From positions 1 through 57,231 of IMG/VR virus record IMGVR_UViG_3300005512_000040: DNA of 57,231 bases; one strand, given 5' to 3'. The DNA is from a virus. Its lineage: Duplodnaviria; Caudoviricetes. How positions within the stretch are numbered: the stretch's first letter is position 1; each line of letters begins with the position of its first letter. The notes under the pieces are model-generated. The model saw nothing but the letters and a program-made list of their open reading frames with translations, did no database searches and was not told where the DNA came from. The position numbers and the translations under genes were made by a program. Positions 112 through 52,544 of the stretch are shown piece after piece.

Positions 112-248
112 GTCCAACGTGAAAGGTGACGGTCGATGAAAAGATGGATGTGCAACGAGTGCAACTCAATCAATGACGGACAGACAATGTGTTGGCGGTG
201 CGGGGCAAAGTCGCCCTTTTCATCGTACCGTCCACCGCCTTGTTCTGC
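112..248 (-). repeat. Long attC-like site (137 bp) containing the start of the next gene
   Basis: GTCCAAC-GTGAAA-GGTGACGGT-CGATGAAAAG...CTTTTCATCG-T-ACCGTCCACC-GCCTT-GTTCTGC; extra base in the right arm. Confidence 0.85.
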
Positions 249-456
249 CTGGGAGGTCGATTACGACATGTTCGAGCGTGACGACTACACCAAGAAGGAC
301 AAGATCGCGCAACGCCTGAACGACGGCTGGCTCGAAATGGGGATGCTGCCCTGGGTCGTAGAGGGCAAACACGCCGGGTTCCATGTATGGTGGAAGAGGC
401 AGAACGATCAAGCTCACGCTTCCCGCGTGAGCGGCGGCGAACGGGGGATAGCGTGA
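136..456 (+). CDS. Cassette protein with N-terminal Zn-ribbon (CxxC...CxxC)
   Basis: ORF starts inside the attC at 112 and ends inside the attC at 399. Confidence 0.7.
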   Translation: MKRWMCNECNSINDGQTMCWRCGAKSPFSSYRPPPCSAWEVDYDMFERDDYTKKDKIAQRLNDGWLEMGMLPWVVEGKHAGFHVWWKRQNDQAHASRVSGGERGIA

Positions 457-471
457 AGCGCCTGGTTCGAT
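399..471 (-). repeat. attC-like site (73 bp)
   Basis: GCAGAAC-GATCAA-GCTCACGCT...AGCGTGAAGC-GCCTG-GTTCGAT. Confidence 0.85.
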
Positions 472-763
472 GGCTGGCAGCACCGATCCCGTTTGTGGGC
501 GAGTACGGCCAGAACGAACGTGCGCCACGGTGGACGTTGCTGCTGGACGTGCATCTCGCCGGACACGCATGGAGGTACAAGGCATGAGTAAGGCCGAGTT
601 CACCGCGTTGCTGGTCGAGTTCACGGCAACGCATCACTGCTCCCGCAACTGGCTTGAAACGGTTGTGGAGTGGATTCGTACATCGAACAAATAGCTCACG
701 AGTTCACGGGCGCGCACGCGTCCATATAGGCGACAACAACGCAACAACACAGCAGGAGGGAAC

Positions 764-1078
764 ATGAGCGAAGACAAACAGTTCATCGGAAAGGTTGAGC
801 AGAGGGACACCAAGTTCGGACCCATCATCAAGGTCGGGTTAGGGCCGCGTGACTTCGCGCAACTCGACGCACTGAGGGAGGCCAGCAAGAGCGGATGGGT
901 CAACCTGGAGTTCAAGTCCGGCAAGAGCGGCAAGTGGTACGGCGAGGTAGACACTTGGGAGCCGAACAGCGTCGGACATCAGGCACAGCAACCGGCACCG
1001 CAGCAGCCGGACCCGCACGGGCAGGGCGGCGACGTGGGCGGTGGTCCAGTAACAGACGACGATAATCTGCCGCTCTGA
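764..1078 (+). CDS. Small protein with acidic C-terminal tail, possible phage SSB
   Basis: AGGAGG RBS; Gln/Gly linker ending DDDNLPL, like an SSB tail. Confidence 0.55.
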   Translation: MSEDKQFIGKVEQRDTKFGPIIKVGLGPRDFAQLDALREASKSGWVNLEFKSGKSGKWYGEVDTWEPNSVGHQAQQPAPQQPDPHGQGGDVGGGPVTDDDNLPL

Positions 1079-1094
1079 CACAACCGGCAGCAAC

Positions 1095-1129
1095 CCGCCC
1101 GTTGCGCGGTATAACGGCGCAACGGGCGG
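1095..1129. terminator. Perfect 13-bp stem hairpin
   Basis: CCGCCCGTTGCGC-ggtataacg-GCGCAACGGGCGG; intergenic, no U-tract. Confidence 0.45.
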
Positions 1130-1141
1130 ACGGAGGGTGGT

Positions 1142-1471
1142 ATGAATACCAACGCACTACACCAGCACTTCGACGCCTTCTACGAGGCTGACGGACAGCA
1201 GGACAAGGGCAGGCGGCATGACATGCTACAGGCATTCACGGCAGGCGCGGCGGCACAGGCTACAGACGCGCCCCTCGTGGACTTTGAAGCAATCGACAGA
1301 GACGAGATTGACCGGACGTGCTGCGGCAAGGCAATCGACCAGCACTACGAAGAGAACGTGACGCACGAGCCGTTCATTGCACTCGGCACGACGGTCGAGT
1401 GTGGCCGGTGCTTCTCTGAGTGGACGCTGGTGAGTTTGAGGGGCAGCGCGCAGTGGAGGCGGACGGGATAG
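1142..1471 (+). CDS. Hypothetical protein (Cys motifs)
   Basis: ORF with GGAGG RBS. Confidence 0.6.
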   Translation: MNTNALHQHFDAFYEADGQQDKGRRHDMLQAFTAGAAAQATDAPLVDFEAIDRDEIDRTCCGKAIDQHYEENVTHEPFIALGTTVECGRCFSEWTLVSLRGSAQWRRTG

Positions 1472-1475
1472 ACGC

Positions 1476-1504
1476 TTGACTTGCCAGCGGGATGGTGGTA
1501 GGGT
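1476..1504 (+). promoter_or_regulatory. Sigma70-like promoter of the replication operon
   Basis: TTGACT-N17-TAGGGT in the intergenic gap. Confidence 0.45.
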
Positions 1505-1683
1505 AGGTGCAGAATGAAGTTGGACCATGACAATGCAGTATTCAAACGCAACTAAAATCTGGCCCCAGTGCGCCCACGTCCGATCGACTGCTTGTCGTCT
1601 GACTTCATTCTATGGGTTGCACTGGGGCCGCTTTATATCGTCTGCGTTTGGAGGGGCGCGGGCGGACGAAAGGAAGGCCCAAC

Positions 1684-2232: not shown

Positions 2233-3079
2233 CGCACCAGCATACCAGATGTACGCCGGAGACTGGATAAAGCACCGCAGCGTTAGGCTGATGGAAGACT
2301 ATCAGCGCGGGTGGTATATCCAACTGCTAAACGAGGCGTGGGACGGCTCCCCTCAGTGCATGCTGCCCAACAACGACGCCATGCTTCAAAAGCTGGCTTG
2401 CGTTTCTGAATTGGCTCGCAGTCAACGGGACTTCAACGACCGTTGGAAAGCCGTTAGAAGCATGTTCAACGTGGACGGAGAATACGTCTACAACGAGCGT
2501 CAACTTGAAGAACTTGCGGGCCAAAAGCAACGAAGGCAAGCAGCCATAAAAGCAGGTAACGCAAGTGCAAAAGCGCGCGAGAAGAAGAGGAAGGAGTTGC
2601 AACTGCTTAAGCGCAAACACCTTAACGACGGCAACGGTCGTTCAACGGACGCTCAACGAGAAGGCAACGAGAAGCCAACACTTCAGTCTTCTACTGCACC
2701 TTCTTCTTCTGGCTACACTTCTCCCCCCATACCCCCCAAGGGGGGCCAGCAGAAGAAACGCAAGAAGCGCCTCACGGTAGCAGAGAAGAAGCGTATGAAG
2801 GTCGAGGTCAATAGCGACACCATGCGGCGGATAGGTCGCTGGTTTGGTCGCAATCCTGATACGCTATGGTCAAGATATGAAGCCGAGGCACTTGACCAGC
2901 TATCGCCAATCGACCCGTCAGAGCTTGACCTGTTGGAGTCGTACTACATGCCAGCAGACGGCAACAAGGAGTACCGGCGCAAGGACGTGGGCACTCTTCT
3001 CAACAACTGGACAGGAGAACTTGACCGCGCTAGCGCATGGACGCCAGCAAGGTCGATGAACCACGAGGACAGGCTATGA
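2225..3079 (+). CDS. DUF1376/YdaU-like replication protein
   Basis: PAYQMYAGDW...RGWYIQLLNEAW N-terminus; directly upstream of primase-helicase. Confidence 0.7.
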   Translation: MNNAPAYQMYAGDWIKHRSVRLMEDYQRGWYIQLLNEAWDGSPQCMLPNNDAMLQKLACVSELARSQRDFNDRWKAVRSMFNVDGEYVYNERQLEELAGQKQRRQAAIKAGNASAKAREKKRKELQLLKRKHLNDGNGRSTDAQREGNEKPTLQSSTAPSSSGYTSPPIPPKGGQQKKRKKRLTVAEKKRMKVEVNSDTMRRIGRWFGRNPDTLWSRYEAEALDQLSPIDPSELDLLESYYMPADGNKEYRRKDVGTLLNNWTGELDRASAWTPARSMNHEDRL

Positions 3080-4689
3080 CCCGCGACGAGATTCTACAGG
3101 CCAACCCAATCCTGCCGTTCGTTGAAGCGCGCGGCGTCAAACTCAAGCGCACCGGCTCGTCACTCATGGCGTTGTGTCCGTTCCATGCCGACAAGAACCC
3201 CAGCATGTCAATCCAAGAGGACAAGGGACGCTGGAAGTGCTTTGCTTGCGGCAAGGGCGGCACCGTGATTGACTGGCTCATGCATGAGAAGGGGCTATCG
3301 GTCAAGGACGCCATGACGGAGCTTGGCGGCACGGAACCGGAGGCGGAAACGTACCGACTGACCGACACGTACCACTATCAGGACGCATACGGTCGGGCGC
3401 TATACCACGTTGACCGCAAGGACTCCAACTGGAACCGCAAGAAGTTCGGACAGTGGCGCGAGAACTCCAGCGGCAAGCGCGTCAACTCGCTTGACGGCGT
3501 GACTAGGGTGCTGTACCGCTTGCCGGAAGTGCTGGCGTCAGACGAGGTATGGCTGGTCGAGGGCGAGAAGTGCGTACACGCGGCAGAGGACGCGGGGTGG
3601 GTTGCAACGACGAACTGCGGAGGTTCCGGCGGGTGGCTGGACGGGTACGCCGAATCGTTGGAAGGCAAGCATGTTGTCGTGTGTCCAGACAACGACAAAC
3701 CAGGGCAGAAGTGGCGCGATGCCGTATTGAAGTCGCTAGAGGGCCGCGTGGCGTCCGTCAGGGCACTAAGTGCGCCCGAGCCATACAACGACATAGCCGA
3801 CATACCAGAGGCGCGCAGAGCACCGCTGATGCTTGAGGCGTACAACGCGGCTGCGAGAGTTGACCGTGGCGTATCGTTGGCAATATACAGCGCGTCCGAA
3901 ATCATGGAACAGTACCAGTCGCAAGTGAAGCTCATGCGTACTCGCGGCCTCAATCTGCGCAACTGGTTGCCGTCGATTGAGTCGCGTCCGCTGGTTCCTG
4001 GCGACCTCGTGACGATTCTTGCAGATACAGGCGTGGGAAAGTCAGCAGCGTTGCAGAACATAGCCGTGTGTACGCCGGATCTGCCTACTCTGTTCTTCGA
4101 GATTGAGTTACCTGGTGCGCAGATGGGCGAGCGATTCAGCGCCATGACATTGCGGCGTGATGCTTGGGACGTCGAAAAGGCTGTAGAGCGCGGCGAGAAA
4201 ATTGACACTAGCGGCTGGGAGCACGTCTATATCTGTCCGAAAAGCAAGATGAGCGTTGAGGACATATCGCACTACATCGAGCGCGCTGAGTTGAAGATGG
4301 GCGAACGTCCTGCCGTCGTGATGATTGACTACATCGGGCTTGTGAAGTCCAGCGGTAGCAGGTACGAACGGTTGAGCAATGTAGCGGAAGGGTTGAAAGA
4401 CCTTGCCAAGAGTGCCAACGTGGTGCTATTGGTTGCGTCACAGGTACACAGGAAGGAAGGCGGCGACAACAAGGTACACTTACACGACGCCAAAGACAGC
4501 GGCAGCATCGAGAATAGCAGCCAGCTTGTCTTGGGAATGTGGAAGGAATCACCGGAAGAGTTGTACGTGAGAGTACTCAAGGACACGAAGGGGCGCGGGG
4601 GAAGTCCAATCAAGTGCATGTATCGCGGCTCGCAACTTTTCATACGAGAGCAAGTGCCCGACTACGGCGCGGACGCGGACGGGCTGTAG
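3076..4689 (+). CDS. Primase-helicase (CHC2 Zn finger + TOPRIM + SF4 helicase)
   Basis: CPFH..KNPS...CFAC; LVEGEK; PDNDKPG; Walker A ADTGVGKS; VMIDYIG; KDSGSIE. Confidence 0.92.
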   Translation: MTRDEILQANPILPFVEARGVKLKRTGSSLMALCPFHADKNPSMSIQEDKGRWKCFACGKGGTVIDWLMHEKGLSVKDAMTELGGTEPEAETYRLTDTYHYQDAYGRALYHVDRKDSNWNRKKFGQWRENSSGKRVNSLDGVTRVLYRLPEVLASDEVWLVEGEKCVHAAEDAGWVATTNCGGSGGWLDGYAESLEGKHVVVCPDNDKPGQKWRDAVLKSLEGRVASVRALSAPEPYNDIADIPEARRAPLMLEAYNAAARVDRGVSLAIYSASEIMEQYQSQVKLMRTRGLNLRNWLPSIESRPLVPGDLVTILADTGVGKSAALQNIAVCTPDLPTLFFEIELPGAQMGERFSAMTLRRDAWDVEKAVERGEKIDTSGWEHVYICPKSKMSVEDISHYIERAELKMGERPAVVMIDYIGLVKSSGSRYERLSNVAEGLKDLAKSANVVLLVASQVHRKEGGDNKVHLHDAKDSGSIENSSQLVLGMWKESPEELYVRVLKDTKGRGGSPIKCMYRGSQLFIREQVPDYGADADGL

Positions 4690-5087: not shown

Positions 5088-5148
5088 CGCCAACGCCGGG
5101 GGTGTGCCTCGGCGCGGTAGCGACGTAGGCACCAGCCCTTTGTTGGGC
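5088..5148 (-). repeat. attC-like site (61 bp)
   Basis: CGCCAAC-GCCGGG-GGTGTGCCT...AGGCACCAGC-CCTTT-GTTGGGC; loop homologous to the site at 43847. Confidence 0.85.
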
Positions 5149-5199
5149 TTTTCTGGATCGGAAACAACGCCGGACAATCCGGCAGAAAGGTAGGACAAG

Positions 5200-6018
5200 A
5201 TGAAGGTTACAGAACTGGCGAGTGGAATTGCGCACGACGGGCGCACAAAGGTAGAGCGTTACGAGTGGGATGCGCTGAAGGCGCGATCCAAGCACATGCG
5301 AATCAAGATCGCAGACCTCAACGTCGATGATTACCAGAGGGGGGAGGCGAAGCGCGGATCAACAATCCAAAAGGCAAAACACTGGGACCATGCCGCCGCC
5401 GGTGCTGTTGTCGTCGGCCAGCGTTCCGACGGATCGTTTTGGGTGGTTGACGGATTGCAGCGCACGCTGGCAGAAGCATTGCGGGGCGACATTGATGCCG
5501 TTGACTGCATGGTGTTCCAGTCAGAAGGAACAGAACATGAGGCCAGAGTTTTCCAACTCTGCAACCTCGGAAGAATCCCGGTTGACGCAATACACAAGTT
5601 CCGCGTTGCCGTGAAGGCCGGAGACACTGTTGAATGCGCCGTTCAGAATTGGGTTGTGGCGAACGGTTTGCGGATTGCGGGGGATAAGGGCAAGAATGAG
5701 ATCGGCTTTCCGTCGTACGTCGTTCAGTTCTGGAAGGCAAACACGGATGCGGTCAAGCGCGCGCTGTTGTTTTCCATGCGCGTCGGTGACGGGGAAATGT
5801 GCTCCGAAGTATTCAAGGGCGCATACCTGCTTATCACACGGGGCGTTGATGTTGAAAAATATGAAACCAGCATCATCAAGCGAGGTGGGCACAAGCGATT
5901 ACTGCGCGACATCAACGCCACGGCTATCGAGGCGGGCGTCAGCAAGAACCTTAACGTATGCGCACGCGGCATACTGTCGAGCATCAACTATCGCCGCAAG
6001 TTACGGGTGGAGATTTGA
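5200..6018 (+). CDS. ParB/Srx-like N-terminal domain protein (DUF6551-like), cassette-borne
   Basis: LNVDDYQR...VVVGQRSDGSFWVVDGLQR motif. Confidence 0.7.
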   Translation: MKVTELASGIAHDGRTKVERYEWDALKARSKHMRIKIADLNVDDYQRGEAKRGSTIQKAKHWDHAAAGAVVVGQRSDGSFWVVDGLQRTLAEALRGDIDAVDCMVFQSEGTEHEARVFQLCNLGRIPVDAIHKFRVAVKAGDTVECAVQNWVVANGLRIAGDKGKNEIGFPSYVVQFWKANTDAVKRALLFSMRVGDGEMCSEVFKGAYLLITRGVDVEKYETSIIKRGGHKRLLRDINATAIEAGVSKNLNVCARGILSSINYRRKLRVEI

Positions 6019-6019
6019 A

Positions 6020-6075
6020 GCCCAACGTGCCCGTGAGCGGACCCGAAGGGGTACGCTCCACGGGGCTTGTTGGCA
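6020..6075 (-). repeat. attC-like site (56 bp)
   Basis: GCCCAAC...CGTGAGCG...CGCTCCACG...GTTGGCA. Confidence 0.85.
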
Positions 6076-6093
6076 ATTCTGGAGGCAACAGCA

Positions 6094-6366
6094 ATGGATA
6101 GGCTATACAGCGTAACGATCGAATATCTTGGGATCAAGAAGCAGGACAAGTTCCCGGCGTCCACTATCTGCCTCGGCAAAGACGGTGCATTCCTTGTGAT
6201 GGACGGGCAAGGCGAATCTGTCCGATTCGTTGCCAAGGATTGCAAGGTCGAACAGATCGCCGCGCATGTGATTATTCTGCACGGGTACACCGACAAGCCG
6301 CGACACATCACGGCGTACTGCGTATATGCCAACGCCGAGGGTCAGTTTTCGGCGGAACGACGATAA
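6094..6366 (+). CDS. Cassette hypothetical protein
   Basis: GGAGG RBS; ends inside the attC at 6327. Confidence 0.7.
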   Translation: MDRLYSVTIEYLGIKKQDKFPASTICLGKDGAFLVMDGQGESVRFVAKDCKVEQIAAHVIILHGYTDKPRHITAYCVYANAEGQFSAERR

Positions 6367-6386
6367 ACTGCACCCTTTTGTTGGGT
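6327..6386 (-). repeat. attC-like site (60 bp)
   Basis: TGCCAAC-GCCGAG-GGTCAGTTT...AAACTGCACC-CTTTT-GTTGGGT. Confidence 0.88.
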
Positions 6387-6404
6387 GCGAGATTGGAGGA
6401 CAAC

Positions 6405-6680
6405 ATGAGACTGGATGAAGTTGATAGAGCATGGATGATACGAGGCGCACACCACTTGGCAGCACGGCACCGCAAGCGGCATATCCCGCTGTGGTCATTC
6501 GTTGGGGCAGTGTGCTCCGTGGGCAGCACGTCGGCAACGATGATATGCCGCGAACTCGGATGGGACCCAAACGCGCCTGCGGACAGGGAACTTCCGTCAC
6601 CCAACGCTCCGGGTGAGGGTCGCGGTATTCCGCGTACCCTCGACCCGATTGTTGGCAGTTCTTCGGAGGGCACGGAATGA
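6405..6680 (+). CDS. Cassette hypothetical protein
   Basis: GGAGG RBS; reads through the attC at 6599 and overlaps the MTase start (ATGA). Confidence 0.7.
   Translation: MRLDEVDRAWMIRGAHHLAARHRKRHIPLWSFVGAVCSVGSTSATMICRELGWDPNAPADRELPSPNAPGEGRGIPRTLDPIVGSSSEGTE
6599..6657 (-). repeat. attC-like site (59 bp)
   Basis: ACCCAAC-GCTCCG-GGTGAGGGT...ACCCTCGACC-CGATT-GTTGGCA. Confidence 0.88.
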
Positions 6681-7375
6681 AACCATACTATCAAGATGAC
6701 GCGGTAACGATATACAACGGGGATTGCAGGGAGATTCTTCCGGCTATGACAGGGAATGTTGACATGGTTCTGTCTGACCCTCCCTACTTCGTCCCAGCAA
6801 ACTCCTACACTGGGAAGCGTGGCGAAGGCTATCACCGCAAGATGCTCGGCGACACTTCCATAATGGGTATGGCATTCGAGCTTGTGTTTGCGCACTACGT
6901 TGACCGTCTCGTATCTGACACCGGAACCTACTACGTCTTTTGTGACCCGCAATCATATCCGCATGTTTGGGCGTCTCTCTATCCGCTCTGCCATTCGACC
7001 AGGATGCTGGTATGGGACAAGATGACATCGTTCAACGGGTACACATGGCGCAGACAGTTCGAGTTGATAGCGTGGGCGAGTAAGCCGAACGCGCCGCGAA
7101 TCCCTACCGGGGACGGCGATGTGTTGCGGTGCCGGGCTGTGAAGGTTGGCGACAGGGAACACCCAGCAGAGAAGCCGCACGAACTCTTGCGGCAGTTGAT
7201 CGGCAAGCACGCTCCGACGTTGGTTCTTGACCCGTTCTGCGGGTCTGGCGCGGCGGTGGTTGCGGCCAAGACGTGCGGTGTACGAGCCGTGGGCATAGAG
7301 ATTGAGGAGCGTTACTGCGAACTGGCAGCGCGGCGATGCTCGCAGGAGATGGACTTTCATACTGCCAACACTTGA
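6677..7375 (+). CDS. N4/N6 DNA methyltransferase (beta class), cassette-borne
   Basis: DPPY...HPAEKP...LDPFCGSG. Confidence 0.92.
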   Translation: MKPYYQDDAVTIYNGDCREILPAMTGNVDMVLSDPPYFVPANSYTGKRGEGYHRKMLGDTSIMGMAFELVFAHYVDRLVSDTGTYYVFCDPQSYPHVWASLYPLCHSTRMLVWDKMTSFNGYTWRRQFELIAWASKPNAPRIPTGDGDVLRCRAVKVGDREHPAEKPHELLRQLIGKHAPTLVLDPFCGSGAAVVAAKTCGVRAVGIEIEERYCELAARRCSQEMDFHTANT

Positions 7376-7411
7376 ACTGTGCGGCTCGTCCGCACGAGTG
7401 CTTGGTTGGAA
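7363..7411 (-). repeat. Minimal attC-like site (49 bp)
   Basis: TGCCAAC-ACTTGA-ACTGTGCGG-CTCGT-CCGCACGAGT-GCTTG-GTTGGAA. Confidence 0.85.
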
Positions 7412-7424
7412 ACTGGAGGACAAA

Positions 7425-7610
7425 ATGGACATTGGAGAGATCAGAAACCGAGTGATGCAGATGGAATCCGAGGACGTGCGGAACGAGTTGGCCGCACTGT
7501 GCGACGAATGCGCGAAGACCCGCGTTACGCTCGCCATGCTGATCGGATGGCTACAGCGGGAGTTGGGCGAGCATAACGTCAAGACCCTGTTTGACCAGCT
7601 CGGACAGTGA
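7425..7610 (+). CDS. Cassette hypothetical protein
   Basis: GGAGG RBS; lies between cores at 7405 and 7615. Confidence 0.7.
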   Translation: MDIGEIRNRVMQMESEDVRNELAALCDECAKTRVTLAMLIGWLQRELGEHNVKTLFDQLGQ

Positions 7611-7686
7611 GTGTTTCCAACCCCAAGCACGGCGGCGCTTGCGTCCATTGATGCGGGAGTTGGCGGAGGCAAGAAGTGGACAATTT

Positions 7687-7821
7687 GCACTGGATGGCGT
7701 AAGTGGGAATGAATACCACAAAGGGCAAGCAAGTACAGCGAAACCGAGTCGACCAACGGTGCCTTGTGCAACGCCCCCGCATTGTAGCGGGGAGATGCGG
7801 GTTCAAATCCCGCTCCAGTGC
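7687..7821 (+). ncRNA. tRNA-like element with ~60-nt D-loop insertion and aberrant anticodon loop
   Basis: Acceptor GCACTGGA/TCCAGTGC, D stem GCGT/ACGC, anticodon arm CCCGC-ATTGTA-GCGGG, T arm GCGGG-TTCAAAT-CCCGC. Confidence 0.65.
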
Positions 7822-7836
7822 GCTTTTTGACACACA

Positions 7837-7867
7837 GAAAGGCCCAACCGCAATGGCTGGGCCTTTC
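7837..7867. terminator. Hairpin between convergent units
   Basis: GAAAGGCCCA...TGGGCCTTTC. Confidence 0.6.
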
Positions 7868-8042
7868 GCTTGCCGTACTGCCGCTCCCCAAACCTACTCC
7901 ACGGAACGGTCGTAATTTGCCAGCACCGCCCGCGCCATTTCGACCAGTTCCAGGTCGTCGTCGAATACCAGCGCGTCTGAATCGTCGCACACTCGCACCA
8001 CATCCCGCAATGCCTCTGCCAGTTCGCTCGTTGTTGGTGCCT

Positions 8043-13498: not shown

Positions 13499-13501
13499 TT
13501 G

Positions 13502-31901: not shown

Positions 31902-31902
31902 A

Positions 31903-43375: not shown

Positions 43376-43411
43376 GTCTGTTTCTCCTGCCCGTCAAGCC
43401 GAGCGTTCGGC
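43274..43411 (+). repeat. Long attC-like site (138 bp)
   Basis: AGCCAAC...GACGGTACAGGAGAAAC...GTTTCTCCTGCCCGTC...GTTCGGC. Confidence 0.8.
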
Positions 43412-43569: not shown

Positions 43570-43826
43570 GCGTCACCACCTGCCGAACAATCAGATTCGG
43601 CGGACGGAGTACCGCCGCTGATCTGCGCGTTGGCAACATCGGCCTTGCGGTCGAGCACCACAATGCACTCGTACTGCTGGACGTGGTATATGTCGCCATC
43701 GTCATGCCATACAACCCAAGCGTCACCCGTTGCACACGGGACGTGCTTGACTGTGCCTTCCAGCGTTTCGCCACCCGCCCAACACACCCGTACTCTGTCG
43801 CCCACTCTTGCGCCTGTATCAGCCAT
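43566..43826 (-). CDS. Cassette hypothetical protein
   Basis: GGAGG RBS; C-terminus encoded by the attC at 43582. Confidence 0.7.
   Translation of the reverse strand: MADTGARVGDRVRVCWAGGETLEGTVKHVPCATGDAWVVWHDDGDIYHVQQYECIVVLDRKADVANAQISGGTPSAESDCSAGGDA
43582..43635 (+). repeat. attC-like site (54 bp), near-identical to 46297
   Basis: GCCGAAC-AATCA-GATTCGGCGG-ACGGAGTACCG-CCGCTGATC-TGCGC-GTTGGCA. Confidence 0.88.
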
Positions 43827-43846: not shown

Positions 43847-43907
43847 TGCCAACAAAAGGCTTCAGCTTACGTCGCTATCGCGCCGAAGCTGAGCCTCGGC
43901 GTTCACA
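43847..43907 (+). repeat. attC-like site (61 bp)
   Basis: TGCCAAC-AAAAG-GCTTCAGCTT...AAGCTGAGC-CTCGGC-GTTCACA. Confidence 0.9.
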
Positions 43908-44125: not shown

Positions 44126-44931
44126 AGCACCACCGCCTTTGCTTTCTGCGACTCAATCTTGACAGTTTCGGCATGCCAGTCGAACGCGCCATCGTCGGCA
44201 ACGTCAAACACCGTCACGCCCCAATCCACGAGGCCGGTGCATTGCCGCGCACCGTACTTCGTGCCCATCCCCTGCAATGCTGGCAGCGTCATTGCGACCC
44301 AACCAGGGCCACCGCAGAACGCGTGATAGTGGACGTGTCCGCGCAAAAACACGTTGGCGTCAGGCTGTAGCGCGTCCTCGTGGTTCCACAGGATGTTCCA
44401 CATGCGCTCCTTGGCGGTTGCTGTGTGGCGTCCGTGCGGGATCGTGCTGCTTCCGATCTTGTGTTTGAGGTCGAATACGCAGCCGTTTACGTCAACCCAC
44501 TCGTGAGCGCCAATCTTCTTGAATCCCGCACGCTCGGCAATGCGGTTCTCCCAATCCTCATCGTTGCCGGTATGGTATCCGGTGCCGTATACTCCGACCC
44601 ACTCAAAGCCGCGACGTGCATTGAGAAGCACGGCGTTAAGGCACTCAATCGCCATGTCTGACTGTTCCTCGCGGTCGGTCGTGATTAGCTCTGTGCCACC
44701 GCTCTTGCGTCCGGTGCCGTCGATTCCGTCGCCGACGTACAGCCCGAAGTGGAACGGACCAAGCTCGTCAATCATGCGCTTGTAATGGTCCCACAGCTGC
44801 CGTTGAAGACGCGCCCACTTGTTGTGTTTGGTTGTCGTGCCATTGACCTCTTTTGTCTGCCATGCGGGAGGCGTCAACCCGCAGGCGTGTCCACAGTGTA
44901 GGTCGCTTACTACAATTCCTCGTTTCTTCAT
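44122..44931 (-). CDS. Metallophosphoesterase
   Basis: SDLHCG, GDGIDG, GTGYH, KH, GHVH. Confidence 0.85.
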   Translation of the reverse strand: MKKRGIVVSDLHCGHACGLTPPAWQTKEVNGTTTKHNKWARLQRQLWDHYKRMIDELGPFHFGLYVGDGIDGTGRKSGGTELITTDREEQSDMAIECLNAVLLNARRGFEWVGVYGTGYHTGNDEDWENRIAERAGFKKIGAHEWVDVNGCVFDLKHKIGSSTIPHGRHTATAKERMWNILWNHEDALQPDANVFLRGHVHYHAFCGGPGWVAMTLPALQGMGTKYGARQCTGLVDWGVTVFDVADDGAFDWHAETVKIESQKAKAVVL

Positions 44932-44964: not shown

Positions 44965-45014
44965 CGCCAACGATTCATTGACGGGACGTGCCGCCCGTCA
45001 ACTCGGTGTTGTGC
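44965..45014 (+). repeat. Unbulged 50-bp terminal site (attI position)
   Basis: CGCCAAC-GATTC-ATTGACGGG-ACGTGCCG-CCCGTCAAC-TCGGT-GTTGTGC. Confidence 0.7.
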
Positions 45015-45199
45015 CGCTTGTTGGGTTTACAAGACTCTCTGGCTTCAATGTCGAACTCAACGTCGAAGCGCACGGACTCACGCTTCTCCCATTCTTCGCG
45101 GTCAACCGACATATCACGGTATGCCTTCAGTAACCGTTGCAGGATCTTCAGGCTGTCCGTCGACAGTTCATCCACATCAACAATGATCTCGTTTTCCAT
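44975..45199 (-). CDS. Cassette hypothetical protein
   Basis: AAGGA RBS; MENEIIVD start. Confidence 0.65.
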   Translation of the reverse strand: MENEIIVDVDELSTDSLKILQRLLKAYRDMSVDREEWEKRESVRFDVEFDIEARESCKPNKRHNTELTGGTSRQ

Positions 45200-45226: not shown

Positions 45227-45286
45227 ACCCAACAAGACAATTCACGCTATCGGCGTTCCGCCGAATCGTGATTGTTAGCGTTGTGC
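45227..45286 (+). repeat. attC-like site (60 bp)
   Basis: ACCCAAC-AAGAC-AATTCACG...CGTGATT-GTTAGC-GTTGTGC; loop homologous to the site at 6327. Confidence 0.85.
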
Positions 45287-46284
45287 GTCAAAGGCAACAG
45301 CCCCTGCCGCAGTTCGTTTTCCAGCCGCGCCCGCGCAGATTCAAACTCGCGCTCGTCCTTTTCCACGCCGACAAACCGCCGCCCGGTCTTGATGCACGCC
45401 AGCCCGGTCGTGCCCGACCCCATGAAGCAATCCAACACCGTATCGCCCGGATTGGTCGTTGTCTCGACGATTCTTTGCATGAGTTCCAATGGCTTCGGCG
45501 TGGCGTGCCCGTTGGCTTTCGCGGGCGGGTATTGCCATACGCTCGACACTTTGCCGGGGTTGTTGAACGTCGGGCGGAGATGTTCGTACTCGCGGCGCAG
45601 GTCGTCGTACTCGCGGCGCAGGTCGTCGTAAGTTCTCTTTAATGGTAGGATTTTCCCCAATTCCGAATAGAGTTGCTTGTCGCATAAATCCCACCGCCGC
45701 CCCTTATTCCACCCGATTTTATACGACGCATGAACACGGACGCTCTCTTCGGTGGTATAGCGCCCGTCTCGCCTAAACACAGCATGCACGTCCTCTTTTG
45801 TTCTTCCGCTCAAATCAAAGGCAGCAAGAAAATACTCTCGCAACGGGCGACAAATGGCGTTCTGATCTGTCCACTGCCCGTCGTCAGCGTGGTAGACGAT
45901 GTACTCGGCCAGCTTCGCGAATGAACGCAGTAGTGGGCTATCTCGCGCGGCATACAACTGCGAATGTGCTTGCTCTGGTGCGTATTTATCCCACGTCACC
46001 CAGTTTTGCATCGGTCGCCCGTGCCGCTCGATGATTCGCGCAATGTCGGCCAGCACCAGCGGCTCAGAGTGGAAACACCAGAACGCACCTTGCCGCTTGC
46101 ACCCCCTTGACGCCGCCGCAATCCACGACTCGCACCATTCGAGGTAGTTGGGTATCTTGTCCCATGCCGCCTTGCCAATGTTGTACGGCGGGTCAGTCAC
46201 AACGGCGTCGCACTCCACTGGTAGCACGTCTAGGCAGTCGCCACGGATGATGGTCACATCGTCAGATAGTTTTACCGCTTTCAT
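45247..46284 (-). CDS. N4/N6 DNA methyltransferase, cassette-borne
   Basis: TDPPY; HATPKP; LDCFMGSGTT; YDDLRRE heptad repeats. Confidence 0.92.
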   Translation of the reverse strand: MKAVKLSDDVTIIRGDCLDVLPVECDAVVTDPPYNIGKAAWDKIPNYLEWCESWIAAASRGCKRQGAFWCFHSEPLVLADIARIIERHGRPMQNWVTWDKYAPEQAHSQLYAARDSPLLRSFAKLAEYIVYHADDGQWTDQNAICRPLREYFLAAFDLSGRTKEDVHAVFRRDGRYTTEESVRVHASYKIGWNKGRRWDLCDKQLYSELGKILPLKRTYDDLRREYDDLRREYEHLRPTFNNPGKVSSVWQYPPAKANGHATPKPLELMQRIVETTTNPGDTVLDCFMGSGTTGLACIKTGRRFVGVEKDEREFESARARLENELRQGLLPLTHNANNHDSAERR

Positions 46285-46286: not shown

Positions 46287-46778
46287 TCAATCCCTCGCAC
46301 AACAATCAGATTCAGCGGACGGAGTACCGCCGCTGATCTGGGCGTTCGCAACATCGCACGGCTTCCCGCACTCGGTACACTCGTGCCAGCGCGTTACGTT
46401 GCCGCGCACGACAACAGGCGCGTGACAGCAGGTGGAGGACTTGCCATCAATGCAGATTGCCGCACTTGCGTCCCAACCCTTGCGCGCCGTAACGTCGTTC
46501 AGCCACGCAACAAGCTCGTCTACGCTCTTGATTACCACAGCCTGACCGCGCCACGCCTCGTGCCACTCAACCTGCAACTCGTTCAGTTTCGACTTGCTCG
46601 GGCACTTGCTGCCGTCCTTTACTTCAACCAGGTAGTTGCGCCCGCTGTGCCCGACCAGCAAGTCGGGCACACCAGCACCGACAGCCTTAAGGTCGCACAC
46701 CGTCGCACCAACCTTGCGCAGTACGTCCACAATCTGCTTGTGATTGGCGTCTGGTTTGCCGTACTTCCTTGCGTTCAC
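46287..46778 (-). CDS. VRR-NUC-like nuclease with Cys-rich C-terminal extension
   Basis: DANHKQIV..LR..G...GVPDLLVG...LVEVKDG. Confidence 0.85.
   Translation of the reverse strand: MNARKYGKPDANHKQIVDVLRKVGATVCDLKAVGAGVPDLLVGHSGRNYLVEVKDGSKCPSKSKLNELQVEWHEAWRGQAVVIKSVDELVAWLNDVTARKGWDASAAICIDGKSSTCCHAPVVVRGNVTRWHECTECGKPCDVANAQISGGTPSAESDCCARD
46297..46350 (+). repeat. attC-like site (54 bp)
   Basis: GCACAAC-AATCA-GATTCAGCGG-ACGGAGTACCG-CCGCTGATC-TGGGC-GTTCGCA. Confidence 0.88.
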
Positions 46779-48717: not shown

Positions 48718-48788
48718 GCCGAACCAGCGGATGGACAACTACCTTCATTCGCTGCGCTCATTTCGGAGTGTCATCCTTTCCGTTCCAC
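48718..48788 (+). repeat. Solitary attC-like site (71 bp)
   Basis: GCCGAAC-CAGCG-GATGGACAACT...AGTGTCATC-CTTTCC-GTTCCAC; arms homologous to the site at 42983. Confidence 0.8.
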
Positions 48789-49021
48789 CCGTGCAGCACC
48801 TTTGCCGCGACGGTCTGCACGTCGAACCGCAGCTTGGCCACGCGGTCGGTTTCGTCGATGGTGCATGGCGCGGCGATGGCACGCACGTCAATCATTACGT
48901 CGCCAACGTCGAGCGGTATGCAACACGCAACGCCCTTGCTGCCGTCAAACCTCTTGAACTCGAATGGCTTTCCTCGGTGCAGCCTGTTGCCAGCCTCGAC
49001 CATTTTGTTTGCGTCAGTCAT
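48758..49021 (-). CDS. Hypothetical protein
   Basis: AGGAGG RBS; ends inside the attC (WNGKDDTPK). Confidence 0.6.
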   Translation of the reverse strand: MTDANKMVEAGNRLHRGKPFEFKRFDGSKGVACCIPLDVGDVMIDVRAIAAPCTIDETDRVAKLRFDVQTVAAKVLHGWNGKDDTPK

Positions 49022-49126
49022 TTGGTTGTCCCTCCTGTCAACATGCGCAAACCATAGCACAACTGGCCGCCCGTGCAAGCGAAAAGTTTGCCGAAAATCA
49101 CGACGAAAAAAAATGCAGAAAGGGGG

Positions 49127-49156
49127 TTGACAACATGCAGCGGCGTGGGCTATTGT
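49127..49156 (+). promoter_or_regulatory. Sigma70-like promoter in the divergent control region
   Basis: A-tract, then TTGACA-N18-TATTGT. Confidence 0.55.
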
Positions 49157-49567
49157 TCGCGTGTCGACTGGGAGAAGCAGCAAGGAGGAGGCACCATGAG
49201 CACGACCGCAGAAAACAAGCAACAGCATCCTCCCGAGTGGGTGGAGCGCGCCATATTCGTTCTTGCGTTTGTCGGCGCGGTCTGGTGGGTTTGCGAAGTG
49301 GCGGCGCGTATGTTCGTGCCGTGGAACTGACGAGGGAGGATTGGTGTGGCAAACACTAGGAGGACCGACCATGCGACGGCTAATCCGAAAAGCAATACAG
49401 TGGTTCGAGATGGCGAGGGGCCTATGGTATCTCGCAAACCTGCCAACAGGCGAGTGGGAGTGCGCGGACGGCAGCACGCCAGAGGGCGCGTACAGGGGAA
49501 AGCAGTGCGGGGATGTGTGAGAACGCTGGCATTGAGCGGACAATGAAGCCGCAGAAGGAGGACTGAC

Positions 49568-49825
49568 GTGGACAACAACGATGGCGCGGCTTCATTGGTA
49601 CGCTCGGATGCTTTGTTGGGCTCCCTGTTCGACGGAGCGGCATACGTCGGCATTCACAAGAACGCAGCAGGGCGCATCACGCTTGTCGTCAATCACGGCG
49701 ACGGCTCCATGCGGACCTCGTGCAGCAAGAAGGGCCTCAGCTACGCGGACAAGCTGATTGAGTGCCGCAACCGTTTGTCCGAGACGCCCAACGCCGGGAG
49801 TCACCGGCAGGAGGAAGCGCGATGA
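49568..49825 (+). CDS. Cassette hypothetical protein
   Basis: AGGAGG and GTG inside the attC at 49518. Confidence 0.65.
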   Translation: MDNNDGAASLVRSDALLGSLFDGAAYVGIHKNAAGRITLVVNHGDGSMRTSCSKKGLSYADKLIECRNRLSETPNAGSHRQEEAR

Positions 49826-50103
49826 GGGAATGGGTTTGCAAACGATGTGGAACGTTCAACAGAGGAGTCCCGCGTTGCGAGAGATGTTGCGCGCTTCCTC
49901 CTGTACGGTCGGACTCCTTGTTCGATGTCCTGGTGGCTATTGTCAACACGGCGCAGACATGCCCCGACCGCTGCATGGCTGACGTGTGCAACGACAACTT
50001 CGCCGTGCATGGCGTGAACCTTCGGGCCGAGATGACCGACAACGAGGACGCGCCGGTCAGGATCGAGAGGACATCGAACGACAGCAATGAGCGGCAGCTT
50101 TAG
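49822..50103 (+). CDS. Cassette protein with N-terminal Zn-ribbon
   Basis: WVCKRCG...CERC encoded in the attC loop. Confidence 0.7.
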   Translation: MREWVCKRCGTFNRGVPRCERCCALPPVRSDSLFDVLVAIVNTAQTCPDRCMADVCNDNFAVHGVNLRAEMTDNEDAPVRIERTSNDSNERQL

Positions 50104-50157
50104 CTGTACGCTCCATTGGCCTTGTTGGGCAATCCCAGCGAGGCCGGAAAGGACAAG

Positions 50158-50451
50158 ATGAGACTGAGACGACAGATTAGACGGATGATGAGCCCGGTTG
50201 ATATTCTCCAATTCAGCCAGTTTACGATCGACTGGTTACAAGAGTTAGACGAGGCTGACGCGCACGGCGATACGACCGGCGACGAGCAGACTGACAACCT
50301 CGCCCTTGCCTACGAAATCGACACGATCCGCGAAGTCTTGCGCTACGGCAGCGACAAGGCGCTGTTCGATATGATGGCGGCATACGCACGGATCTGTATG
50401 CCCAACGATGATCCTCACGTTTCCGACGTGAGCACAGCGAACAAAGGATAA
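50158..50451 (+). CDS. Cassette hypothetical protein
   Basis: Ends PNDDPHVSDVSTANKG inside the attC. Confidence 0.65.
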   Translation: MRLRRQIRRMMSPVDILQFSQFTIDWLQELDEADAHGDTTGDEQTDNLALAYEIDTIREVLRYGSDKALFDMMAAYARICMPNDDPHVSDVSTANKG

Positions 50452-50606
50452 CGTGGAGGATTTTGTTGTGTGTCCGCGATGCGAAGAATGGAGCTTGCCA
50501 ATGTGCCTGATACGGACAACAGATGACGCATTGGTTGGCATGGGAATATCCGTAGCCCATGCATCGGGTGTGACTCCCGGCGCGGACTCCTTTTGTATAC
50601 ACAACG
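50400..50606. repeat. Duplicated cassette, copy 1
   Basis: 207 bp identical to 51502-51708 except one base seen (50408/51510). Confidence 0.95.
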
Positions 50607-50644
50607 TCCGGCCTGACGCGCCGGGCGAGAAAGGTGCGACATGA
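50453..50644 (+). CDS. Cassette peptide, copy 1
   Basis: GTG start inside the attC; CPRC motif. Confidence 0.6.
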   Translation: MEDFVVCPRCEEWSLPMCLIRTTDDALVGMGISVAHASGVTPGADSFCIHNVRPDAPGEKGAT

Positions 50645-50982
50645 CCAAGGCGGCTATACCCGGTCGCGTCGAGGCCGTTGTTCTCCACCTGGTTCTGACG
50701 CACCATTGGTTCGACGAGATGATCGCCGGCCGCAAGTGGACCGAGTACCGCAAGGTTACGCCACACTGGACGCGGCTGATATGGGACCGCCGCGACAAGA
50801 TCACGCACGCCCGGTTCAGCCGGGGCTACACGGCGCAGCGGATCATCCGCCGCGTGGAGCAGATCACGATAGGCCCGTGCCCCTACGACGGGTGGCCGGG
50901 GCAATACTACCGCATAGACCTCGGGGAGGTCCGTGTGGAGAACGACCGTCTTCACGGTCGAGGAAAGAGCGATAGCGAATGA
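50641..50982 (+). CDS. ASCH/PUA-like domain protein, paralogue 1
   Basis: LHLVL..HWFDEMIAGRKWTEYR...FSRGY. Confidence 0.8.
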   Translation: MTKAAIPGRVEAVVLHLVLTHHWFDEMIAGRKWTEYRKVTPHWTRLIWDRRDKITHARFSRGYTAQRIIRRVEQITIGPCPYDGWPGQYYRIDLGEVRVENDRLHGRGKSDSE

Positions 50983-51188
50983 CGAGTACCGTGCAAGACT
51001 TGGTTGTGCCCCTGTGGCCGTCCCGTTGCTTCTGGGGCTTCTGCCGGCACGAGATTCGCAAAGGTCTTATGTTTCGCTACTGGATCACGCTTCCGGCGAT
51101 CTGGCAGCGCGAACTGCAATTCCGCCGCGAGCTGACAGAGTGTTTGAATGGGCACAACGATTTGAATGAGGGGCGCAATGAAGGATAA
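50979..51188 (+). CDS. Cassette hypothetical protein
   Basis: ATGA-coupled inside the attC at 50937. Confidence 0.6.
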   Translation: MTSTVQDLVVPLWPSRCFWGFCRHEIRKGLMFRYWITLPAIWQRELQFRRELTECLNGHNDLNEGRNEG

Positions 51189-51313
51189 ATGTTCCGCCAA
51201 TGCTGATGAACAAGCCATGGGCTTGAGGCAGGACGGTCGGTCAGTTGACCAGCCTTCATTGCGTACCCTCCATTCTCTTGTTGGGCATCCAAATCAATGA
51301 AAGGAACACGACC

Positions 51314-51553
51314 ATGCTGATTACGATTCCACTGAGACGAACGTATCTTGTACTGAGCACCTGCAACCGATTCCTGCACGTCTACCTGTCGCGTAACGCT
51401 ACGCCGTGGCATCACTCCCGCGTCAGCCTGTGGGGGCGGCGCAAATACAACCGCTACGCAGCGCACGTCGGGGACGACGGTTGCTGCTGCGAATCCTGTA
51501 AGCCCAACGCTGATCCTCACGTTTCCGACGTGAGCACAGCGAACAAAGGATAA
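51314..51553 (+). CDS. Cassette hypothetical protein
   Basis: AAGGA RBS; ends PNADPHVSDVSTANKG. Confidence 0.6.
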   Translation: MLITIPLRRTYLVLSTCNRFLHVYLSRNATPWHHSRVSLWGRRKYNRYAAHVGDDGCCCESCKPNADPHVSDVSTANKG

Positions 51554-51708
51554 CGTGGAGGATTTTGTTGTGTGTCCGCGATGCGAAGAATGGAGCTTGC
51601 CAATGTGCCTGATACGGACAACAGATGACGCATTGGTTGGCATGGGAATATCCGTAGCCCATGCATCGGGTGTGACTCCCGGCGCGGACTCCTTTTGTAT
51701 ACACAACG
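51502..51708. repeat. Duplicated cassette, copy 2 (ORF 51555-51728)
   Basis: See copy 1. Confidence 0.95.
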
Positions 51709-51724
51709 CGGAGGTGACTGGACG

Positions 51725-52045
51725 ATGAGAGCGACAGCGAACAGCGGTACAGTCCACCGTCTTGTTCTCCACCTTGTCCTCACGGGAAGGTGGTTTGACA
51801 TGATGATGGGCGGTGTCAAAGACGTTGAGTATCGGGCAATCACGGAGCACTGGACGCGGTTGATTTGGAATCGCCGCGACAGGATCACACACGCCCGCTT
51901 TGCACGCGGGTACACGAAGGAAACCATCTTGCGTCCAGTGCGTCGCATCGACATTGGATCGTGTCCGTATGACGGATGGGATGGCGATTACTACAGGATT
52001 CACATGCCACCGATACAGGTGGAGAACGATGGGCGTCAGCCTTGA
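51725..52045 (+). CDS. ASCH/PUA-like domain protein, paralogue 2
   Basis: LHLVLTGRWFDMMMGGVKDVEYR...FARGY. Confidence 0.8.
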   Translation: MRATANSGTVHRLVLHLVLTGRWFDMMMGGVKDVEYRAITEHWTRLIWNRRDRITHARFARGYTKETILRPVRRIDIGSCPYDGWDGDYYRIHMPPIQVENDGRQP

Positions 52046-52104
52046 GCGAATAGCGAATAGGCTGGACGCCTTTGTTGGGCGGCCGGTCAGAAAGGGAAAC
52101 AACG

Positions 52105-52350
52105 ATGAAACTGTGCAAAGACTGCAAATGGCGTGACGGACACAGGTGCGTTGCGCCGCAAAACTCTTCCGGAGTTGACCCGGTTGACGGCGGCAAGGCG
52201 TCTGGATGGATTATGACGTGCCAGGCGCAACGCACTGGAACGTTTACGGGGTGGTTTTGGTGCCGCGTAACAAGGCTGTGCGGGAAAGAGGCTAGATGGT
52301 TCACGCCCAACGTAGCGCTCACGAGCGCCGACGAAGGAGGCGTATCGTGA
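52105..52350 (+). CDS. Cassette Cys-rich protein
   Basis: MKLCKDCKW...C...CGKEARWF. Confidence 0.7.
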   Translation: MKLCKDCKWRDGHRCVAPQNSSGVDPVDGGKASGWIMTCQAQRTGTFTGWFWCRVTRLCGKEARWFTPNVALTSADEGGVS

Positions 52351-52544
52351 AGCGCATGGTTGTGCGTCTGCTTTGCCGCCACGACTGGCGCGAACATACC
52401 GTTCTCGGAGTTGGGGATCACGAGTTTTCCGATCTACGCTCTTGCACCAAATGCACGGCCAGCAAGCTCTTGTTTTCTGGCACGCGGAAACAGTGGAGAC
52501 AACATCACGGCTACGATACGCACAACATTGCAATATCGAGTTAG
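52347..52544 (+). CDS. Cassette small Zn-binding protein
   Basis: AGGAGG and GTG inside the attC at 52305; LCRHDW...CTKC. Confidence 0.65.
   Translation: MKRMVVRLLCRHDWREHTVLGVGDHEFSDLRSCTKCTASKLLFSGTRKQWRQHHGYDTHNIAISS

Follow-up and report, generated by a model that had tools for sequence, protein, structure and literature searches.

Five arrays of integron-type cassettes with apparently inverted attC sites in an uncultivated phage

Integrons are regarded as a bacterial device, and what had previously come to light of them in phages was only a few short clusters of attC recombination sites in the usual orientation. Here we describe some 25 integron-type cassettes, spread over five arrays, in a single phage that is represented by the IMG/VR virus record IMGVR_UViG_3300005512_000040 (Duplodnaviria; Caudoviricetes). 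This one contig was analysed as a whole and is called the window in the following; it is linear, 57,231 bp long, ~70% complete and has a G+C content of ~58%.

The closest described case comes from Qi et al. 2023 (Front Microbiol, PMC9892861), whose accessible text reports 17 CALINs (clusters of attC sites lacking an integron integrase), with a minimum of two attC sites each, in 10,705 phages. Phage TJE1 is listed there with 3 attC sites and 4 open reading frames (ORFs), the orientation is called "typical" for TJE1 and PH101, and the integron integrase IntI1 recombined five of the six phage attC sites tested, two of them from TJE1. According to the part of Loot et al. (bioRxiv 10.1101/2022.09.11.507474) that was available, IntI also inserts cassettes outside integrons, at loosely defined GWT sites termed attG. 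For the chromosomal integron of Vibrio cholerae, the accessible portion of Richard et al. 2024 (Sci Adv, PMC13108822) gives excision of <7e-5 in the native as against 3e-2 in the inverted state, and states that excision is raised when the attC bottom strand lies on the lagging-strand template, strand placement governing folding.

Sites, cores and strand of the cassettes

The sites were found by a scan for AAC...GTT pairs around a bulged stem, followed by folding and by curation, for which the sequence was read. On the strand of the local small-gene operons, each consists of NNNNAAC, a spacer of 3-4 nt (G plus 2-3 nt), a 5' arm, a central loop of variable length, a 3' arm that carries one or more extra bases relative to the 5' arm, a 3-nt spacer (N-T-T/G) and GTTNNNN, and measures 49 to 141 nt in total. 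Curation yielded 29 full sites and three terminal half-sites, arranged in five arrays (A1 to A5) and two solitary sites (Table 1), and the conserved AAC and GTT triplets of the inverted R boxes (R'' with AAC, R' with GTT) are present in 28 of the 29. An initial annotation of the contig, made from the sequence alone, had described the form and the places of these palindromes correctly, but had counted 26, in five clusters plus one solitary site. With 2 to 11 sites per array and no gene for an integron integrase (IntI) in the contig, the arrays fall under the definition of CALINs, i.e., at least two clustered attC sites.

The signature expected of cassettes that were once circles lies in the cores. 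The GTT core that opens a cassette and the AAC core at its close are exact 7-mer reverse complements in 23 of 25 intervals, and the two others (GTTGGCT>AGCTAAC and GCTCGGC>GCCGAAC) depart from it by one mismatch, precisely the numbers of the initial annotation. Twelve different 4-nt cores are in use, by a tally of the interval list, and the four variable bases match in 24 of the 25 intervals; when partners were permuted the mean was 2.63 and the maximum 12, and none of 100,000 permutations reached 24. Within one site, by contrast, the two cores are never complementary (1-4 mismatches in 27 of 27). These tests used 27 full sites and the three half-sites; the sites at 44965-45014 and 16608-16687 were added afterwards, giving 29. 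Complementarity of R'' and R' within a site was also tried as a signal for finding sites, and was rejected because the scan returned noise, the cores pairing across cassettes.

The stems formed by the L boxes are likewise under constraint. In an alignment of seven sites, tested with a supplied structure, compensatory changes occur in 10 of 11 pairs and 98% of the cells are paired, which none of 500 shuffles reached, while slid registers gave at most 48% paired cells; the alignment has one bulge column, on the 3' arm. RNAalifold on an 18-site MAFFT alignment returned no structure, the arms being misaligned there.

Hairpins between cistrons on the sense strand could in principle have a role in RNA or transcription, as processing sites, intercistronic stem-loops or terminators, or be REP- or MITE-like repeats (repetitive extragenic palindromes or miniature inverted-repeat transposable elements), with no site-specific recombination involved. 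The hairpins carry stop codons, ribosome-binding sites and start codons and thus certainly also act in translation. Taken as the whole explanation, however, this leaves unaccounted for why cores pair between neighbouring sites but not within them, and why the sites cross-match attC_aadA1, the attC sites of TJE1 and bacterial arrays in genomes that encode IntI (see below). Moreover, the stems are followed by NTT-GTTSGNN (GTTGGNN) and not by a T run, so that they do not qualify as terminators or REP elements, and no Rfam family matches them. We therefore hold this alternative to be very improbable, and consider with high confidence that hairpins and genes together are attC-type cassettes made by recombination at AA^C (the caret marking the crossover), that is, former circles.

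The strand of the sites was determined with two covariance models that served as surrogates for the IntegronFinder model, R1 built from 7 phage sites and R2 from 30 sites of four bacterial loci. With R1, 18 window sites reach E<0.02, every one of them on the sense strand, and the antisense strand of the same sites gets no more than 11 bits; R2 finds 27 at E<0.05, at the curated coordinates and all on the gene-sense strand, missing the two that are marked in Table 1 and giving one probable false match at 31151, inside a tail-region gene (E=0.06). As a classical control we used the aadA1-qacEdelta1 junction of plasmid R100, in which the aadA1 sense strand has the extra base of the L boxes on its 5' arm: R1 matches attC_aadA1 from end to end with 27.5 bits (E=4e-7) antisense to aadA1, as against -0.6 bits on the sense strand. 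On phage TJE1, R1 matches 244-293 and 1462-1519 on the minus strand, with orf1-3 on the plus strand. The gene-sense strand of the window sites has the shape of a canonical bottom strand, with the AAC box at the 5' end and the extra base or bases on the 3' arm, and the canonical arrangement, with the ORF on the attC top strand and attC downstream of it, is not what the window shows.

The strand of the genes relative to the sites is fixed by three methyltransferases with Pfam support (6677-7375 on the plus strand, 45247-46284 and 42215-42820 on the minus strand), which all lie on the site strand, and in the viral contigs L155, L158 and L162 the methyltransferase matches likewise share a strand with the sites there. 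A crude call of ORF strand from G+C at third codon positions (GC3) against model strand gave same/opposite counts of 17/6 in the window, 23/11 in other viral loci and 8/28 in bacterial ones. Since both models match the window sites on the gene-sense strand and R1 matches those of aadA1 and TJE1 on the antisense strand, the cassettes are almost certainly inverted, as the initial annotation had claimed from the position of the extrahelical base, with attC upstream of its own gene.

Three further structures were seen near these sites. Two R''-type cores stand in tandem at 45008-45026 (minus strand; ACCCAAC, 5 nt, GCACAAC), the first closing the upstream cassette and the second being part of the next site; they may have been left behind by a lost cassette or by an event at a secondary site. 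A near-perfect 16-bp hairpin at 1095-1129, between the genes at 764-1078 and 1142-1471, has the reverse core order (GTTGCGC...GCGCAAC); it is not of the attC type and may be a terminator or an operator. Finally, CGCCAAC at 44353-44359 was considered as a hidden site and rejected, as it folds poorly and lies in coding sequence, inside a 269-aa ORF.

Cassette boundaries, reading frames and cargo

The boundaries of the unit can be read from duplicated and from homologous cassettes. The 198-nt duplicate of array A5 starts just inside attC and ends one base past ACACAAC (ACACAAC-G), and the attC sites that follow its two copies are unrelated, so that the same ORF is given two different C-terminal tails after an Asn. 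Two unrelated ORFs that precede one attC, that of the duplicated unit, share one tail, and so do the ORFs ahead of the near-identical attC sites at 46297-46350 and 43582-43635. Between the viral contigs L050 and L118 a homologous cassette starts exactly at AAC, the four preceding bases differ, and attC moves with the downstream ORF; between the window and L107/L155, attC, the downstream 5' untranslated region (UTR) and the ribosome-binding site are kept and the ORFs differ. The unit is C-attC-GTTNNNN-(ribosome-binding site)-ORF-NNNNAA, with boundaries at AA^C on the sense strand; the end of the duplicate and the start of homology between L050 and L118 bear out the break at AA^C that the initial annotation had proposed. 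AA^C is the cleavage position of the canonical bottom strand. The G/TT junctions quoted in the accessible text of PMC9892861 are consistent with this position.

The ORFs run through these boundaries. The main ORF of 23 of the 25 cassettes continues in frame through the closing AAC, read as an Asn codon, and ends at a stop 6-63 nt further on, inside the next site, usually having no stop codon of its own; the two exceptions stop 8 and 11 nt before the closing AAC. As the stop lies in the attC of the next cassette, the last few residues of the protein depend on the neighbour. Reading of the translations further places the predicted starts of 12 of the 25 ORFs inside the loop of their own attC. 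Frame 0 is the longest upstream open frame at 21/27 sites in the window, 51/67 in other viral contigs and 22/59 in bacterial loci, and the frame-0 stop falls inside the site at 22/27, 48/67 and 16/59, respectively; this combination of frame and stop is specific to the viral sites. In a profile of 93 sites from the window and the viral loci, filtered on AAC and GTT, position 4 of R'' is mostly C or G, with T in 17 of the 93, and bacterial arrays mostly have TAAC/GTTA; C or G at this position may avoid TAA and TAG codons in translated cores.

The cargo of the cassettes consists mostly of ORFans, apart from three methyltransferases, two phrog_625 paralogs and several small CxxC-rich proteins. The methyltransferases named in the initial annotation are confirmed by Pfam, and the three of them, which are orphans, plausibly serve anti-restriction. 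An assignment to ASCH found no such backing, the two phrog_625 paralogs (unknown function) matching no Pfam family at E<=5, and the zinc ribbons are visible as CxxC pairs in the translations with only weak Pfam matches. At the long-loop sites 112-248, 49786-49926, 43274-43411 and 42983-43121 each loop encloses an ORF start with two CxxC pairs in the first ~25 residues, so that a zinc-ribbon-like N-terminal module sits inside attC.

Distribution of the sites and the acting recombinase

A pattern scan of IMG/VR returned at least 118 loci, and the counts derived from it are lower bounds. R1 detects one or more sites in at least 24 of these uncultivated viral loci, two or more in at least 18, and up to 9 per locus. 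Apart from the attC sites, which are 86-97% identical, the array-bearing viral contigs have next to nothing in common with the window, in DNA or in proteins. A pattern scan of GTDB combined with R1 revealed arrays in many bacterial metagenome-assembled genomes (MAGs) as well, for instance 14 sites in 8 kb of a Gemmatimonadaceae contig, and the core-chain test on such bacterial arrays gave 12/13 in L237, 3/3 in L193 and 18/27 over five loci together. IntI above the curated cut-off is encoded in four of five bacterial genomes with such arrays and in none of 14 control genomes.

One contig in the bacterial set stands apart as the only lead to a host: L220, 3.2 kb long and binned in a Planctomycetaceae MAG, has four sites of the phage type, all in frame 0 and with ORFs on the site strand, a methyltransferase fragment, and an attC that is 83-88% identical to those of the window and L151. 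It is probably a piece of a phage or prophage.

We propose that IntI supplied in trans by the host would fold the sense strand, cut at AA^C and thereby excise, insert and reshuffle cassettes; this is inferred from the recombination of phage attC sites by IntI1 (PMC9892861, accessible text) and from the co-occurrence of IntI with such sites in bacteria. Arrays might be seeded at ordinary double-stranded genomic sites of the GWT type (attG), which the terminal half-sites would mark, and such seeding would account for both the five separate arrays and the half-sites; the sequences that follow the half-sites are unrelated. With the recombinogenic strand on the coding strand, it may come to lie where it becomes single-stranded, be it as lagging-strand template or in the course of transcription, which may ease folding and lead to high turnover; that strand placement affects excision is shown in PMC13108822. 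We consider this explanation by host IntI and integron-type cassettes probable as a whole, and the host enzyme, taken by itself, a fairly likely agent.

Alternatively, the same architecture could be served by an enzyme of the phage, either its own tyrosine integrase (8043-9113) or an unrecognised recombinase in the missing ~30% of the genome. The half-site of A2 at 7615-7621 lies ~420 nt from the integrase operon, with integrase, non-coding region and array in line, and the integrase belongs by its domains to the Xer/integron-integrase super-group. It is, however, the sole tyrosine recombinase of the window and reaches only 29 bits on the IntI model TIGR02249, whose cut-off is 265, and four of the five arrays are far away from it. 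A six-frame search of the window gave nothing better than 18.6 bits, which upholds the statement of the initial annotation that no IntI is encoded. In none of ten other array-bearing viral contigs did the IntI model find anything at E<=0.001, a level at which the window's own integrase does show up, with its 18.6 bits, and since their proteins have almost no counterparts in the window, the arrays are not accompanied by a conserved phage recombinase. The window and these contigs are all fragments (14-70% complete), so that absence of IntI from the phages themselves is not proven. On balance a phage enzyme seems rather unlikely to us, and recombination by host IntI remains the explanation that we pursue.

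Several observations weigh against this explanation. The lack of IntI in the window and in the ten other contigs is one of them. The core rule holds for only 13 of 31 consecutive pairs in other viral contigs (L084 4/7, L070 4/5, L095 0/5), some of the failures perhaps being due to missed long-loop sites, and in the window it is broken at one junction (GTTGGCG at 44965 as against TGTGAAC at 43907), which the initial annotation had taken for a cluster boundary; one site, furthermore, has its GTT mutated to GCT. Phages can have an attC in common with both flanks different, which exchange at AA^C alone does not explain. R2 is not fully independent, as the bacterial sites behind it came from a phage-derived pattern and model, and the GC3 call, crude as it is, places six of the 23 window intervals on the "opposite" strand, where the curated genes disagree. 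Nor was a near-identical relative with different cassette content found: the flanking protein at 52608-53501, used as a metagenome query, retrieved 31 loci, and sites were present only in L004, an identical fragment of 2,427 bp and the sole other copy. Neither the primase-helicase nor the presumed large terminase (TerL) as query found a close relative among IMG/VR viral contigs, an alignment of the two phrog_625 paralogs found no relative in viral contigs, blastn of 25585-33114 against the phage collection gave no match, and TerL was not found in the genomes G006-G010.

The missing IntI in cis, the degenerate GTT, the unmatched junction and the lack of visible variation (L004 being identical) would also fit inert relics, i.e., cassettes taken from bacterial integrons or from an ancestral system, whose fossil attC sites no longer recombine. 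Yet 23 of 25 cores are still perfectly complementary, stems are kept paired through compensatory changes, the 198-nt duplicate is 100% identical, and attC sites are 93-97% identical between phages that have no other DNA in common. The frame and stop features, which are specific to phages, show adaptation within phages and not passive import of bacterial cassettes. Relics are thus an improbable account, although less so than RNA elements, and we return to active recombination by host IntI for what follows.

As a tentative generalisation, which we find quite conceivable, phages of integron-bearing bacteria may keep a distinct class of phage-adapted cassettes, with attC upstream and on the coding strand, a loop that provides ribosome-binding site and start, and an ORF that is closed by the stop of the next attC. 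Such a pool could be exchanged between otherwise unrelated phages by hijacked host IntI and, as the inversion would put the recombinogenic strand where it folds most readily, form a fast-shuffling accessory and anti-defence genome that mirrors the banks of defence cassettes in their hosts. Taken together, the inversion and the fixed frame of the ORF-attC fusion imply that the cassettes are by design adapted to phage operons. That this phage keeps some 25 small accessory genes in such cassettes, each behind its folded site, suggests an exchange of accessory genes by phages with a machinery of gene capture that is known from bacteria; the same site type occurs in at least 24 other viral loci, which otherwise have almost nothing in common with the phage. 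Should host IntI drive the system, the same enzyme would shuffle accessory genes of phages and defence cassettes of bacteria, and the turnover of phage accessory regions would become testable with standard integron assays.

The remaining contig and comparison with known systems

Table 1. Coordinates of attC-type sites, cores and selected genes in the 57,231-bp window (cores given as R''..R'; R1 and R2, covariance models).
Feature	Position	Strand	Remarks
Array A1	112-688	+	
A1 site 1	112-248	+	GTCCAAC..GTTCTGC; long loop (137-nt) with start of ORF 136-456, N-terminal CxxC pairs; R2 24.0 bits
A1 site 2	399-471	+	GCAGAAC..GTTCGAT
A1 terminal half-site	682-688	+	ATCGAAC; no hairpin after
Array A2	5088-7621	+	
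A2 site 1	5088-5148	+	CGCCAAC..GTTGGGC; 97% identical to attC of L151/L162, 83% to one in L220
A2 site 2	6020-6075	+	GCCCAAC..GTTGGCA
A2 site 3	6327-6386	+	TGCCAAC..GTTGGGT; loop holds stop codon of ORF 6094-6366
A2 site 4	6599-6657	+	ACCCAAC..GTTGGCA; attC common to L107/L155 (93%) and L095/L158
N6_N4 DNA methyltransferase	6677-7375	+	PF01555 E=2.5e-20
A2 site 5	7363-7411	+	TGCCAAC..GTTGGAA
A2 terminal half-site	7615-7621	+	TTCCAAC; abuts non-coding region upstream of phage integrase
Phage tyrosine integrase	8043-9113	-	PF00589 E=3.5e-14; SAM-like and catalytic domains of Xer/integron-integrase super-group
Solitary attC-like site	16608-16687	+	GATTAAC..GTTCGGC; upstream of small ORF and tRNA-Met, between packaging genes; R2 19.1 bits, E=0.008; no partner core found nearby
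tRNA-Met	16861-16934		only tRNA gene of the window
Array A4	43907-42205	-	
A4 site 1	43847-43907	-	TGTGAAC..GTTGGCA; stop codons in all three frames in loop and 3' arm
A4 site 2	43582-43635	-	TGCCAAC..GTTCGGC; nearly identical to 46297-46350
A4 site 3	43274-43411	-	GCCGAAC..GTTGGCT; long loop with ORF start at 43375
A4 site 4, degenerate	42983-43121	-	AGCTAAC..GCTCGGC (GTT mutated); R2 16.5 bits
A4 site 5	42783-42841	-	GCCGAAC..GTTGGCC
MT-A70 family methyltransferase	42215-42820	-	PF05063 E=1.3e-22; start codon inside site 42783-42841
A4 last site, short subtype	42205-42254	-	GGCCAAC..GTTGTTT; R1 only 7.4 bits, on + strand, none on gene-sense - strand; missed by R2
Array A3	46350-45020	-	
A3 site 1	46297-46350	-	TGCGAAC..GTTGTGC
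N6_N4 DNA methyltransferase	45247-46284	-	PF01555 E=7.7e-41
A3 site 2	45227-45286	-	GCACAAC..GTTGGGT
Core ACCCAAC	45020-45026	-	closes second A3 cassette; 5 nt upstream of R'' core of next site
Short-subtype site	44965-45014	-	GCACAAC..GTTGGCG; homologous to 42205-42254; R2 18.6 bits
Solitary site	48718-48788	-	GTGGAAC..GTTCGGC; R1 8.2 bits; missed by R2
Array A5	49518-52526	+	
A5 site 1	49518-49621	+	TGAGAAC..GTTGGGC; ORF start 49568 in loop
A5 site 2	49786-49926	+	GCCCAAC..GTTCGAT; loop holds start of CxxC-rich ORF
A5 site 3	50073-50130	+	ATCGAAC..GTTGGGC
A5 site 4	50400-50471	+	GCCCAAC..GTTGTGT; opens duplicated cassette, copy A
Duplicated run, 198 nt	50409-50606 = 51511-51708	+	100% identity; attC plus ORF
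A5 site 5	50599-50686	+	ACACAAC..GTTCTCC; R2 34.1 bits
phrog_625 ORF	50641-50982	+	60% identity to paralog 51725-52045; start in attC loop, stop in next attC
A5 site 6	50937-51009	+	GGAGAAC..GTTGTGC
A5 site 7	51152-51286	+	GCACAAC..GTTGGGC; long loop; R2 33.4 bits
A5 site 8	51502-51573	+	GCCCAAC..GTTGTGT; opens duplicated cassette, copy B
A5 site 9	51701-51770	+	ACACAAC..GTTCTCC
A5 site 10	52021-52080	+	GGAGAAC..GTTGGGC; attC and downstream 5' UTR common to L107/L155
A5 site 11	52305-52365	+	GCCCAAC..GTTGTGC
A5 terminal half-site	52520-52526	+	GCACAAC; no hairpin after

Outside the arrays, the window encodes a primase/DnaB-type helicase (3037-4689), an HNH nuclease, RadC, SSB and a PDDEXK protein. 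Large plus-strand ORFs follow one another at 14168-39049 and are presumed to make up the packaging and structural module; the 625-aa protein at 14168-16045 is presumed to be TerL. Upstream of the gene 13596-14171, on the approach to the terminase region, a ~20-nt motif (ACGTTGTAGTATTCAA-like) occurs in two direct copies at 13500-13560, which could serve in packaging or regulation. In the integrase operon, three genes are each preceded by one type of ribosome-binding-site context (GGCGAACGAAAGGAGCGGA-like; 9330-9350, 9630-9650 and 8050-8070, minus strand). The non-coding stretch 7700-7870, between array A2 and this operon, holds a hairpin resembling a tRNA T-arm (~7795-7811) and then a strong GC hairpin (7837-7867), and may be attP; neither ARAGORN nor Rfam made a call on the T-arm-like stretch, and a 30-mer from it was absent from 401 genomes of the phylum of G010 at up to 2 mismatches. 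The divergent intergenic region 49021-49196 separates the leftward operon with A3 and A4 from the rightward one with A5, and has a TTGACA...TATTGT-like pair upstream of A5.

The window shares with bacterial integron arrays and CALINs the AAC/GTT R boxes, the imperfect L-box hairpin with extrahelical base(s), the variable loop and the co-orientation of sites within an array, as well as the complementarity between the first core of a cassette and the core of the site that closes it, and the models detect the sites of either group in the other. In the bacterial loci examined, the ORF is mostly opposite to the bottom-strand model (28 of 36 intervals) and AAC has no preferred frame (22/59), whereas in the window attC stands 5' of the ORF on the sense strand, the ORF is read in frame through the crossover, and its stop lies in the next attC. 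A further difference from bacterial arrays is that those of the window, five in one phage contig of 57 kb, are dispersed over its early and accessory operons. Compared with a complete integron, IntI is missing, and no attI or Pc was identified, no search with an attI model having been made.

In T4-type phages, the promoter-plus-stem-loop repeats of the so-called PeSL "mobile regulatory cassettes" are presumed to act by homology. The likeness extends to small accessory genes in plastic regions of the phage genome, to repeated stem-loops at their flanks and to a presumed shuffling via circles; PeSL elements, however, are not known to have AAC/GTT cores, an extrahelical base or core complementarity, all three of which are found at the window sites.

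Half-sites at the ends of A1, A2 and A5, where NNNNAAC is followed by DNA that is not attC, resemble insertion at attG as set out in the accessible part of 10.1101/2022.09.11.507474; attG was demonstrated there with IntI1 in chromosomes of E. coli and not in phage DNA, and for the window it would apply by analogy. The inversion in PMC13108822 concerns, in the portion available, a whole array turned with respect to replication with the orientation of gene and attC kept, whereas in the window attC is inverted with respect to its own gene.

Clusters of attC sites without IntI, with DNA methyltransferases among their cargo, were already reported for phages in the accessible text of PMC9892861, to which extent the novelty considered in the initial annotation does not hold. 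That paper is the only work on attC sites in phages that a literature search found. In the papers searched, neither systematic inversion of cassettes nor a fixed-frame fusion of ORFs to the neighbouring attC is described, for bacteria or for phages, and no phage arrays this large are either, although other orientations may be listed in the supplementary tables of PMC9892861. In the CALIN of TJE1, R1 matches antisense to the genes, whereas the window sites are all sense, and the window's single contig holds as many as 29 sites and 25 cassettes, for which the circle signature is demonstrated. Phage CALINs as such are thus already published, and what the window adds to them is a very large system of several arrays, inverted, and with ORFs fused to attC.

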